This document shows, piece after piece, positions 7,767-18,660 of a stretch of 32,000 nt of DNA (position 1 is its first letter; every line of letters starts with the position of its first letter). The notes below the pieces were generated by a model that saw nothing but the letters and a program-made list of their open reading frames with translations, had not been told where the DNA came from and searched no databases. The position numbers and the translations under genes were made by a program. The DNA is from Candidatus Jordarchaeales archaeon (GTDB lineage: Archaea > Asgardarchaeota > Jordiarchaeia > Jordiarchaeales > Freyrarchaeaceae): positions 169,172 to 201,171 of the forward strand of contig JAWCFL010000001.1 of the NCBI GenBank assembly GCA_038858525.1, given 5' to 3'.

Positions 7767-8828
7767 ATGACGGTGATTTATGTGCCCAAGATCATTCCGC
7801 CGGAGGGTTTGAAAAGAAAGGTTATCGTTAAGAGTGAAGAGGAAACCAGTGAGGAGTACGGTAAACGTCCTAGCGAGAGGAGTGTGGAGGAGCTTTTAGA
7901 GGGGTGCTTCGTGAACATAGATAAGCCGGCAGGCCCGACCAGCCACGAAGTTTCTTCCTGGGTAAGGAGAATTTTGGGTTGCTCAAAAACTGGACATGCA
8001 GGGACACTAGAACCCCTTCAGACTTTGAAGGGGTGGTGAAATCCTAAGGTTACTGGGGTCTTGCCGGTTGCGGTAGGGTCTGCTACAAAGGTTATACAGG
8101 CCCTTCACCTTATAGGGAAAGAATACGTTTGCGTTATGAGGCTCCACGAGGATGTTGAGGGCGAAAGGATCAAGAAGATCTGTAAGGAGTTTACTGGGCC
8201 AATCTATCAGAGGCCGCCGATACGTTCCTCGGTGAAGCGAAGGCTTAGAGTAAGACGGATATATTACCTCGACGTGCTTGAGGTGGAAGGAAGAAATGTC
8301 CTGCTGAGAATAGGATGCGAGTCTGGGACGTACATAAGGAAGCTTTGCCACGACATAGGGGAGGCGTTAGGGTGCGGCGCTCACATGCGCGAGCTTAGAA
8401 GAACTCGAAGTGGACCTTTTACCGAGAGAAACATGGTAACGCTACACGACTTAAAGGACGCCTATGTTTTTTGGAAGGAGGAGGGTGATGAAGCTCCCAT
8501 CAGAAAAGTGTTATTACCAGTAGAGGAGGGAGTGCAGCACTTGCCCAAGTTTTTCGTGAGGGACTCAGCTGTTGACGCCATATGTCATGGAGCGGACTTA
8601 GCTGTTCCCGGCGTAGTCAAGCTTGAAGATGGAGTGGAGAAGGGTGATGTGGTCGCGATCTTGACTCTTAAGGGTGAACTAGTCGCTCTGGGCGTTGCCC
8701 TGATGACCGTAGAGGAAGTTGTAAGAGAAAAGCGGGGAATAGCGGTTAAAACGACAAGAGTAATAATGAGCAAAGGAACTTACCCAAAACTCTGGAAAAG
8801 CAAGAAGAATAGCGGTTCAATCACGTAG
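7767..8828 (+). CDS. cbf5: H/ACA pseudouridine synthase Cbf5, two exons (7767-8010, 8041-8828), 343 aa spliced
   Basis: [12 protein letters not shown] and GHAGTL upstream; [20 protein letters not shown] and the PUA domain downstream. Both ORF-track pieces share a frame and are separated by a 30-nt hairpin insertion containing TGA. Removing it gives GHAGTLDPKVTG. Confidence 0.96.
8011..8040 (+). other. 30-nt BHB intron in cbf5 mRNA
   Basis: Exon helix GGGA/UCCU; central helix CACU/GGUG; bulges AG|A and AA|A; intron stem ACCCCUUCA/UGAAGGGGU with loop GACUU. It splits the catalytic Asp codon (G|AT). Confidence 0.95.
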
Positions 8829-8900
8829 TTTTACATTCCCGAAAAATATAAAATACCACTAAACTTCTTCATTCCTAAAAAGGCGGGAGGTTAACAGAGG

Positions 8901-9206
8901 TTGAAGTACCCTAAAGTTAGGCGAACTTATTGTCCACGATGTAAAACACACACAGAACACTCAGTTAGCGTCTATAAGAAAGGTAAGGATAGGGCACTGG
9001 CCGCAGGAGCTAGGCGCTATGCAAGGAAGAAGAGGGGTTATGGAAGCCAGCCTAAGCTCTTCTATGTCTTATAGAAGAGGGGTAAGCCCGTTCAGAGGGA
9101 GTTCGCGAAGACCACTAAGAAGGTTAGCTTTAAGCTTAAATGCAAGGAGTGCGGTCATACGCTCCACACTAAAGGTATCCGCCTCAAAAAGGCTGAAGCA
9201 ATTTAA
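8901..9206 (+). CDS. rpl44e: 50S ribosomal protein L44e (eL42), two exons (8901-9055, 9086-9206), 91 aa spliced; absent from the ORF track
   Basis: Hand translation from TTG 8901: [20 protein letters not shown]...GYGSQPK[insertion with TAG][24 protein letters not shown]...AI*. Canonical position before S27e and aIF2alpha. Confidence 0.95.
9056..9085 (+). other. 30-nt BHB-type intron in rpl44e mRNA
   Basis: Central helix GCCU/GGGU (two G-U pairs); bulges AA|G and AA|G; stem CUCUUCUAU/AUAGAAGAG with loop GUCUU; outer exon helix imperfect. Contains an in-frame TAG. Excision gives CCT AAG CCC GTT (PKPV). Confidence 0.88.
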
Positions 9207-17409: not shown

Positions 17410-18440
17410 TCACCTCTCACTCTCAACCCATGATACTTGAACCTCGTCAAGCCTCCACCTCGGCTTCACGTAGCTTTCCTCCACCCTTAGGATCCTTCCA
17501 CTAACATACTCTAATATTCCTGTCCAGGCGATCATTGCTCCATTATCTCCTGCCAACTGCTGGGGGACCACGTGGAAGGAGGCGCCATGCTCCTCAGCTA
17601 TCACTCTGATCATTTCTTGCAACCTCCTGTTTCTGCCGACACCTCCCGTCAGTAGAACGTCACCTTTACGCGTGTGCGCCAGAGCCCTCTCAGTCACTTC
17701 AGCCAGCATGGAGAAGCAGACTTCCTGAACGCTGTAGCACAGATCTTCAACTTTGCAACTACCAATCTTGCCAACCGCAGCGGTGTAAACCCCAGAATAG
17801 GAGAGGTCCATTCCCTTGACGACATATGGCAGCGGAATAAAAGTGCTTCCTTTACTCGCCAGCTCTTCGACCTTTGGCCCGCCAGGATGCTTTAAACCCA
17901 GCGCCCTAGCGAGCATGTCAAGCATGTTTCCGATGGCCAAGTCAAGCGTCTCCCCAAAGACACGGTACCTGCCTTTCTCGTAAGCTGCAACCAGAGTGTT
18001 TCCTCCAGAAACATACAACGTTAAGGGGTCTTCAACGTTCTCGGTGAGACGCCCAATTTCTATGTGGGCTAAACAGTGATTAACGCCCACTAAGGGAACG
18101 TTTAACGCCAGTGCAAGCGCTCTGGCAGCCGTCGCCACCGTTCTCAGGCAAGGGCCTTTGGGGGCTTCGCCAACCCCGGCCCTTGAGAGAACGCGACCAA
18201 GTTAACCTCACTTATTTTGATTCCGGCTTCGCTTATAGCTGAGGTGATCGCCTGCTTAACCGCGTTCGAGTGGTGCTGCGCGGCTTCCCTAGGGTGGATC
18301 CCGCCCTCAGCGGGCACATACTCGTCTCTGATGTTCGCTAGAATTTCTCCTTCACTACTTGCCACTCCTACACCTAAAGTGTGAGCTGTTCCTTCGAGCC
18401 CCATGCATAGCAGGCGGCGGCCGCCCAGTGCCTTCCTCAC
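17410..18440 (-). CDS. kae1: t6A synthase Kae1/TsaD, two exons (18440-18172, 18157-17410), 338 aa spliced
   Basis: GLEGTAHT, GGIHP and VAFSQGPGL in one frame; GPCLRTVATAAR, VNHCLAH, VSGGNT, GETLD and DNGAMIA in another. Removing 14 nt joins them. The GTG 18440 start is tentative. Confidence 0.94.
18158..18171 (-). other. 14-nt canonical BHB intron in kae1 mRNA
   Basis: Exon helix CAAGGGCC/GGCCCUUG (8 bp); central helix GGGG/CCCC; bulges UU|G and AA|A; mini stem GC-GAA-GC. Excision gives GGG TTA GGC CCT TGC (GLGPC) and removes the frameshift. Confidence 0.93.
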
Positions 18441-18459
18441 AAGTCTCAGTGTAGCGCCA

Positions 18460-18660
18460 TCAGCCGCCTTCATCCTCCTTATCCTCATCCTCTCTTTTCT
18501 TTTCCTTAGCTTCCCTAACATACTCCGTGTATCCACACTTGCCGCAGGTGTAACGGCGCCAGTGCTCCGCCATGAAGACGCCTGGCCCACACCTGGGACA
18601 GAACTTTTTGGCGCGAACCAGTTGGCCATTGACGATCTTGTAGTATTTGCCAACGCTCAC
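18460..18660 (-). CDS. rps27ae: 30S ribosomal protein S27ae (eS31), no ubiquitin fusion
   Basis: [15 protein letters not shown] and [12 protein letters not shown] motifs. Confidence 0.96.

Follow-up and report, generated by a model that had tools for sequence, protein, structure and literature searches.

A probable splicing-endonuclease intron in the gene for ribosomal protein L44e of an Asgard archaeon

How does an archaeon make ribosomal protein L44e (eL42) from a gene whose reading frame runs into a stop codon just behind one of the protein's invariant lysines? Here we examined such a locus in a window of 32,000 nucleotides from the genome of a Candidatus Jordarchaeales archaeon, and all coordinates given below are those of this window. 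The closest public records to the neighbouring aIF2-alpha gene come from Candidatus Jordarchaeum sp. LHC_1308 (86% identity) and a Jordarchaeia archaeon (85%), which places the genome in Candidatus Jordarchaeum, within the Asgard class Jordarchaeia. The rpl44e frame opens with TTG at 8901 on the forward strand and runs to the conserved GYGSQPK, whose Lys codon is the AAG at 9054-9056. Next come LFYVL, a TAG stop and KRGK, after which L44e resumes in the same frame and continues to a TAA stop at 9204-9206. Once 30 nt (9056-9085) are deleted, translation of 8901-9206 gives an L44e of 91 amino acids. The initial annotation had claimed that an L44e gene is hidden here by a 30-nt, stop-containing insert at the Lys of GYGSQPK, and this held when the frame was re-read and translated. 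The Pfam Ribosomal_L44 profile (PF00935) matches across the interruption with a score of 78.2 bits (profile positions 1-74) despite the internal TAG, and both CxxC pairs and the GxGxQxK loop of the family are present. The spliced translation, with both CxxC pairs kept, aligns end to end with intron-less orthologues. The same annotation had placed the Lys of the GGQTK motif in eukaryotic eL42 close to the CCA end of tRNA, a statement that is found in the literature as a citation of Hountondji 2012 within PMC5418926.

Divided in this way, exon 1 (8901-9055, forward strand) begins at TTG and ends after the second base of the Lys52 codon, and what it encodes includes the zinc ribbon's first CxxC and the residues up to GYGSQP, while exon 2 (9086-9206, forward strand) supplies the third base of Lys52, the second CxxC and the TAA stop. 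Upstream of the gene, on the same strand, reading of the sequence suggests a Shine-Dalgarno-like GGAGGT (8887-8892) and, around 8846-8853, a TATA-like stretch rich in A and T. By inspection, exon 2 has neither a start codon nor a ribosome-binding site of its own. Gene callers report only a fragment of 57 amino acids corresponding to exon 1, and this 57-residue fragment is the only product that an unspliced mRNA could give. A second, intact rpl44e, along with transcripts that are all unspliced, had been named at the outset as what would speak against an intron. A Pfam profile search of the 2.09-Mb, 92.7%-complete genome returned no second rpl44e, its sole match being the interrupted locus.

The insert and the exon sequence just upstream of it can be arranged in the order exon tetramer, bulge, hairpin, intron tetramer, bulge, which is identical to the order in pre-tRNA. 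The exonic strand of the central helix, GCCU (9050-9053), pairs with the intronic strand, GGGU (9080-9083), giving the 4-bp central helix of bulge-helix-bulge introns. A 5' bulge AAG (9054-9056) lies between this helix and the inner hairpin (9057-9079), the arms of which (9057-9065 and 9071-9079) form a perfect stem of 9 bp around the loop GUCUU (9066-9070). The intronic strand of the helix is followed by a second AAG (9084-9086), forming a 3' bulge or loop. Applying the rule that cuts fall after the second base of each bulge, we place the predicted cuts at 9055/9056 and 9085/9086 and define the intron as 9056-9085. It consists of 1 nt of bulge, the 9-bp hairpin with its loop, GGGU and AA, and carries the in-frame TAG at 9072-9074. 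Cutting by this rule rebuilds the Lys codon as AA + G, with G9086 as the base that completes Lys52. The motif TAAGC is present at both ends of the insert, so that deletion of 30 nt from any start between 9053 and 9058 leads to an identical product.

The local fold of 9042-9095 is exactly the proposed structure, with an energy of -17.7 kcal/mol, and its stability exceeds that of shuffled sequences only mildly (z -1.98 for this 54-nt window). The anatomy had been described initially as a 9-bp hairpin with a GUCUU loop, a GCCU/GGGU helix and two AAG bulges within a relaxed outer helix. Every one of these elements was confirmed by the sequence and the local fold, and outside the 3' AAG we found only 2+2 discontinuous pairs (G9046-C9087 and C9047-G9086, then G9042/43-C9089/88). 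In the strict hBHBh' form both bulges are closed on both sides. Here the 5' bulge is closed and the 3' AAG is only weakly followed by pairing, and on this basis the motif is of the relaxed HBh'/BHL form rather than strict hBHBh'. HBh'/BHL is a recognised relaxed subclass of the splicing motif (PMC5829648). ARAGORN and Rfam searches gave no match anywhere in the window.

We consider that the insert is very probably, with a likelihood of about 0.9, a tRNA-type intron that the splicing endonuclease removes from a ribosomal-protein mRNA. The gene would be transcribed with the 30-nt intron, which would fold together with the upstream exon into a relaxed bulge-helix-bulge motif. A two-subunit alpha/beta EndA would cleave both AAG bulges behind their second base, and RtcB would join the exons, rebuilding the AAG codon of the invariant Lys (GYGSQPK-P) and yielding a normal mRNA for the 91-aa L44e/eL42. 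From the sequences we infer both that this mRNA is spliced at all and that EndA and RtcB do the work. An intron in a ribosomal-protein mRNA had been proposed from the letters of the window, and the proposal now draws support from orthologous introns, compensatory base changes, an intron-less junction, the single gene copy and the EndA and RtcB genes of the host.

To follow the insert across the class Jordarchaeia (also called Freyarchaeia) we compared 11 genomes, each with one L44e locus, and found an insert at the same rpl44e codon in 10 of them. Metagenome contigs were added via their exon-1 protein fragments, bringing the collection to 13 distinct intron-bearing sequences whose assemblies (NCBI, JGI, ENA and Logan) are independent. 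The intron is 30 nt long in the window genome and its congener G003, 29 nt in G001, G002 and G004, 33 nt in G005, G007-G010 and two metagenome contigs, and 34 nt in one metagenome contig. The layout is the same in all 13 sequences, namely an exon tetramer, a 3-nt bulge, a hairpin, an intron tetramer and AA plus one base. In every case excision by the bulge rule produces a complete 91-aa L44e with the invariant Lys, the frame restored and the stop at the same place.

The proposed structure leaves 92.8% of the cells paired in the alignment of the 13 sequences, as opposed to 46-54% in controls with the 3' partners slid along by 1-3 columns, and none of 500 shuffles reached the observed pairing. 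Four of the 9 hairpin pairs have changed on both sides among the orthologues (0-2 in the slid controls), and two hairpin pairs go from U-A to C-G between the window genome and G003 alone. The central helix is paired in 98% of cells, with changes from U-G to C-G and from G-U to G-C, and an A-C mismatch within it occurs in one of the 13 sequences. RNAalifold, run on the 13 orthologues without the structure being supplied, recovered the same hairpin and central helix. It also added a weak outer helix of 2 bp, in which a C-G of the window genome is matched by U-A in the other family.

The 29-nt forms bear on how the frame could be restored. In these the DNA reads AAU (Asn) at the position of the invariant Lys and exon 2 is out of frame, and both AAA (Lys) and the frame are recreated only if the cuts fall between AA and U at the 5' site and between AA and A at the 3' site. 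One might otherwise suppose translational bypassing as in phage T4 gene 60, with peptidyl-tRNA-Lys hopping over the hairpin from the AAG at 9054-9056 to the AAG at 9084-9086. The window genome indeed has matching take-off and landing AAG codons, a repeated TAAGC, a hairpin between them and a stop following. However, the 29-nt orthologues (G001, G002 and G004) have AAU at the 5' site, and no matching landing codon in them gives both Lys and the frame, since landing on AAC leads to the wrong frame and landing on CCC loses the invariant Lys. Bypassing also leaves the conserved and covarying 4-bp pairing between the exon and intron tetramers unexplained, and we regard it as extremely improbable. 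Readthrough of the stop codon, or insertion of pyrrolysine at TAG, was ruled out by the 29-nt and 34-nt forms and by forms with two stops.

Both exons show mostly synonymous codon differences within the genus. For exon 2, read in the spliced frame, we counted 11 synonymous and 2 non-synonymous differences from G001, and 20 and 5 respectively from G002. The exons thus appear to be under purifying selection in the spliced frame, and constraint on an exon 2 that in the DNA lies behind a stop or out of frame suggests that rpl44e is expressed in the spliced frame. These data also bear on whether the gene is simply broken, be it a pseudogene, an assembly error or a protein made in two separate pieces. 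Gene callers that give only the 57-aa piece, and public records that name such fragments hypothetical proteins, would agree with a broken gene. Set against this, no other copy of the gene for this essential ribosomal protein was found, the same interruption recurs in 13 distinct sequences assembled independently by or from NCBI, JGI, ENA and Logan, selection appears to act on both exons, and exon 2 has no start signals with which to be translated separately. A broken gene is therefore hardly credible to us.

Two sequences in the class lack the insert. One is the complete genome of Ca. Freyarchaeum deiterrae (G006, protein WXG40705.1) and the other is a JGI contig, L129. Both read GYGSQPKPIQ, which is exactly the junction predicted for the spliced form, and five more members of the 90%-identity cluster of G006 are full-length L44e proteins of 91 aa. 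The JGI contig carries flanking genes and spacers and looks like DNA rather than spliced RNA. The intron is present in five congeners of G006 and in the sister family. The simplest history would be an intron that was present in the ancestor of the class and was lost precisely in the lineage of Freyarchaeum deiterrae, which offers a natural test case for how such introns disappear. In other Asgard classes L44e is uninterrupted in the 29 sampled genomes that had an L44e match, and one further sampled Asgard genome (G027) gave no match to the L44e profile. Longer L44e matches of 243-249 nt without stops, seen in other Asgard families, were examined as possible introns and rejected as natural variants of a protein loop.

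When exon 1 was searched against 5.8 billion proteins, no form of 91 aa reached an identity of 90% within the genus, and the 91-aa matches that did come back are intron-less Freyarchaeum alleles or belong to other Asgard lineages. The spliced rpl44e junction had no exact match among JGI metagenome contigs. The spliced cbf5 junction, used as a positive control, was absent from them as well, so the missing rpl44e junction says nothing on splicing. The exon-1 fragment is deposited as a "hypothetical protein" of 54-58 aa in Jordarchaeaceae metagenome-assembled genomes (for example MEM3588080.1), and from these records L44e appears to be effectively missing from their public annotation. Among the contigs collected, the Freyarchaeum-like L130 and L133-L135 have no S27e called between rpl44e and the gene for aIF2-alpha, where it is called in L131, L132, L136 and the window. 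S27e may be interrupted as well in the four contigs without the call.

Does the host have enzymes suited to such a substrate? Two EndA-family genes are present in the genome. The catalytic subunit is 191 aa long and, among solved structures, best matches its counterpart in the Aeropyrum pernix heterotetramer (3p1z_B, E 1.6e-48). The active-site Tyr, His and Lys are all present, and the alignment with A. pernix extends through the N-terminal loop region. The second subunit (198 aa) is without the catalytic His. The architecture of EndA had been singled out initially as something to be checked, and the two genes predict an (alpha-beta)2 enzyme of the Aeropyrum type, with an alpha subunit that resembles the broad-specificity A. 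pernix enzyme including its loop region. Asgard EndA has been described as (alpha-beta)2, with an L1 loop linked to broad substrate specificity (PMC5829648). A gene for the RtcB ligase is intact (601 bits). Judged by gene content, the host would have both an EndA that accepts relaxed motifs and an RNA ligase, and because the rpl44e 3' site has no proper outer helix, its cleavage is predicted to depend on a broad-specificity enzyme of this kind. Across the genome ARAGORN identified just 11 tRNA genes, and 8 of these have an intron. Such a picture agrees with the published figures for Freyarchaeia, in which 92-95% of tRNA genes are reported to carry interruptions, frequently at non-canonical sites (PMC11291895).

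It is possible to imagine that the insert is removed by machinery other than EndA and RtcB, or that its splicing is incomplete and serves as a regulatory switch. The position of the 3' site outside a canonical bulge could be taken to favour this, as could a feature of the window genome that offers pairing in competition with the motif. This feature is an exact 11-nt direct repeat, AGAAGAGGGGU (= AGAAGAGGGGT), found on the forward strand at 9029-9039 in exon 1 and at 9073-9083 in the 3' half of the intron. When a longer stretch (9020-9120) is folded, the structure of minimum energy pairs the 5' arm of the intron with the upstream exon repeat instead. Such a repeat arose in 0 of 2000 shuffles in the Jordarchaeales genome, and it is absent from all 12 of the other orthologous sequences. 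A conserved switch is therefore unlikely, because the exon repeat is confined to one genome. As for other machinery, the geometry is that of an EndA substrate (a 4-bp helix and 3-nt bulges) and cleavage behind the second bulge base yields the correct product in all 13 sequences, whereas for self-splicing the insert is far too small. Overall we judge departures of this kind to be very unlikely, and continue to favour removal by EndA with joining by RtcB. The repeat had also suggested that the intron might be a copy of sequence in the exon upstream of it. We rejected this, as a repeat missing from all 12 other sequences is not ancestral.

We also asked whether the motif might be due to chance. 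The genome was scanned for a strict form of the motif (a 4-bp helix, 3-nt bulges and a perfect stem, G-U pairs being allowed), with composition-matched shuffles as a control. With stems of at least 10 pairs there were 12 occurrences in the genome versus a mean of 2.4 in the shuffles, and with stems of at least 8 there were 70 versus a mean of 35. The strict motif is thus only modestly enriched, and the motif alone is no proof of an intron. A motif at the exact position and in the phase that mends an essential gene is a different matter, with an expectation of roughly 6e-7 per position, and chance is no explanation for it. Its recurrence in 13 distinct orthologous sequences would likewise appear to be beyond chance. 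The top two matches of the strict scan are the rpl44e site itself and a site in cbf5, 1 kb upstream. Further elements of 29-31 nt with A-rich bulges and stems of 9-10 bp, whose removal leaves long open frames on both sides, were seen in the scan at C2:68766, C3:105828, C19:24824 (reverse strand), C1:44868 and C4:101512 (contig and position), and these are likely additional mRNA introns.

The cbf5 gene lies directly upstream of rpl44e and serves as an internal control. Its putative intron, also of 30 nt, occupies 8011-8040 on the forward strand between exons at 7767-8010 and 8041-8828. CACU at 8005-8008 pairs with GGUG at 8035-8038, the bulges are AGA and AAA, the 9-bp hairpin has a GACUU loop, and an outer helix of 4 bp is present. 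The element is thus a full hBHBh', with a layout of 1+9+5+9+4+2 that is the same as in the rpl44e intron, the difference being the relaxed, HBh'-like 3' site of the latter. Excision by the bulge rule changes GAA to GAT and restores GTLDPKVTG. The intron falls between the first and second base of the triplet that encodes the catalytic Asp, and the published position of the crenarchaeal cbf5 intron is the identical catalytic Asp site (PMC2738675). Bypassing, already improbable for rpl44e, cannot serve this neighbouring insert, where the Asp codon exists only after the RNA is joined. In every one of the 11 genomes of Jordarchaeia, cbf5 exon 2 has an open frame that closes just upstream of the intron, at a length of 258-263 aa compared with 330-360 aa in most other Asgard genomes. 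This suggests that the cbf5 interruption is conserved across the class, and it is possibly present in one other family as well (G028 and G038).

Splicing of archaeal protein-coding mRNA by the tRNA machinery has been confirmed only for cbf5 and only in Crenarchaeota, so far as the searchable literature goes (PMC2738675), and in that literature we saw no mention of comparable introns in genes for ribosomal proteins or in mRNAs of Asgard archaea. The crenarchaeal cbf5 pre-mRNA intron is known from Aeropyrum, Sulfolobales and Desulfurococcales (Watanabe 2002; Yoshinari 2006; Yokobori 2009, PMC2738675). As in that system, rpl44e has a short bulge-helix-bulge intron within a codon of a conserved motif, in an essential protein gene and in a host with a hetero-oligomeric EndA. 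In both systems the frame survives in some copies and is broken in others, and the pattern of occurrence shows gains as well as losses. The two differ in that the gene interrupted here encodes a ribosomal protein rather than an RNA-modifying enzyme and belongs to an Asgard archaeon, not a crenarchaeon. Splicing has been shown experimentally for crenarchaeal cbf5, while the rpl44e intron is known from DNA sequence.

The rpl44e element has the same motif, and presumably the same enzymes, as the non-canonical tRNA introns of Thermoproteales and of Freyarchaeia/Atabeyarchaeia, and its lineage is the same as that of the Freyarchaeia tRNA introns (PMC11291895; bioRxiv 10.64898/2026.10.13.758758). 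Unlike these, its substrate would be the coding region of an mRNA, so that splicing must precede or compete with translation. A comparison with eukaryotes can also be drawn. The likeness would lie in a short mRNA intron at structured sites, removed independently of a spliceosome, with joining by a tRNA ligase as proposed here for rpl44e. In HAC1/XBP1 splicing, protein enzymes alone remove a short mRNA intron at structured sites, the spliceosome takes no part, and a tRNA ligase (RtcB in metazoans) joins the exons. It differs in its endonuclease, which is Ire1 and not EndA/TSEN, and in its cleavage sites, a pair of 7-nt loops instead of a bulge-helix-bulge. HAC1/XBP1 splicing is also regulated by stress, whereas rpl44e gives no sign of regulation. 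RtcB ligation of HAC1 is cited in PMC5829648 (its ref. 5).

If the rpl44e intron is obligatory, standard annotation would miss or truncate the gene, with effects on completeness estimates and on phylogenies built from Asgard ribosomal proteins, and the tRNA-splicing enzymes would become essential for ribosome synthesis itself. One would then also have to ask how translation of the unspliced message is avoided in a cell that couples transcription to translation. A broader and more tentative idea is that many mini-introns lie inside codons of the most conserved motifs of essential Jordarchaeia genes, and that an Asgard archaeon without a nucleus routinely has to complete a protein-only splicing of its mRNAs before translation. 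We think this possible but somewhat doubtful. Were many essential genes interrupted in this way, synthesis of L44e and of translation factors would depend on the capacity of EndA and RtcB, and the conflict of splicing with translation that is invoked in models for the origin of the nucleus would have a prokaryotic precedent.

Within the window we counted as interrupted cbf5 (at the catalytic Asp), rpl44e (at the invariant Lys), the aIF2-gamma gene (two introns in the P-loop) and kae1. The kae1 gene (TsaD family) is split at 18169-18156 on the reverse strand, with ORFs at 18144-18653 and 17410-18138 in different frames. Removal of about 14 nt restores FSQGPGLGPCLRTVATAAR, and no clean motif with a 4-bp helix could be fitted. 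The aIF2-gamma gene, on the reverse strand, appears to be interrupted twice inside its GTP-binding loop, at 22029-21953. The first candidate intron (30 nt, 22029-22000) has a CUGG/CUAG helix and a 9-bp hairpin with the loop UUGAU, and the second (31 nt, 21983-21953) has a UGGC/GCCA helix with bulges AAU and AGA. The two flank a micro-exon of 16 nt, and cuts placed by the bulge rule give GTAGHVDHGKTTLVQALAG.
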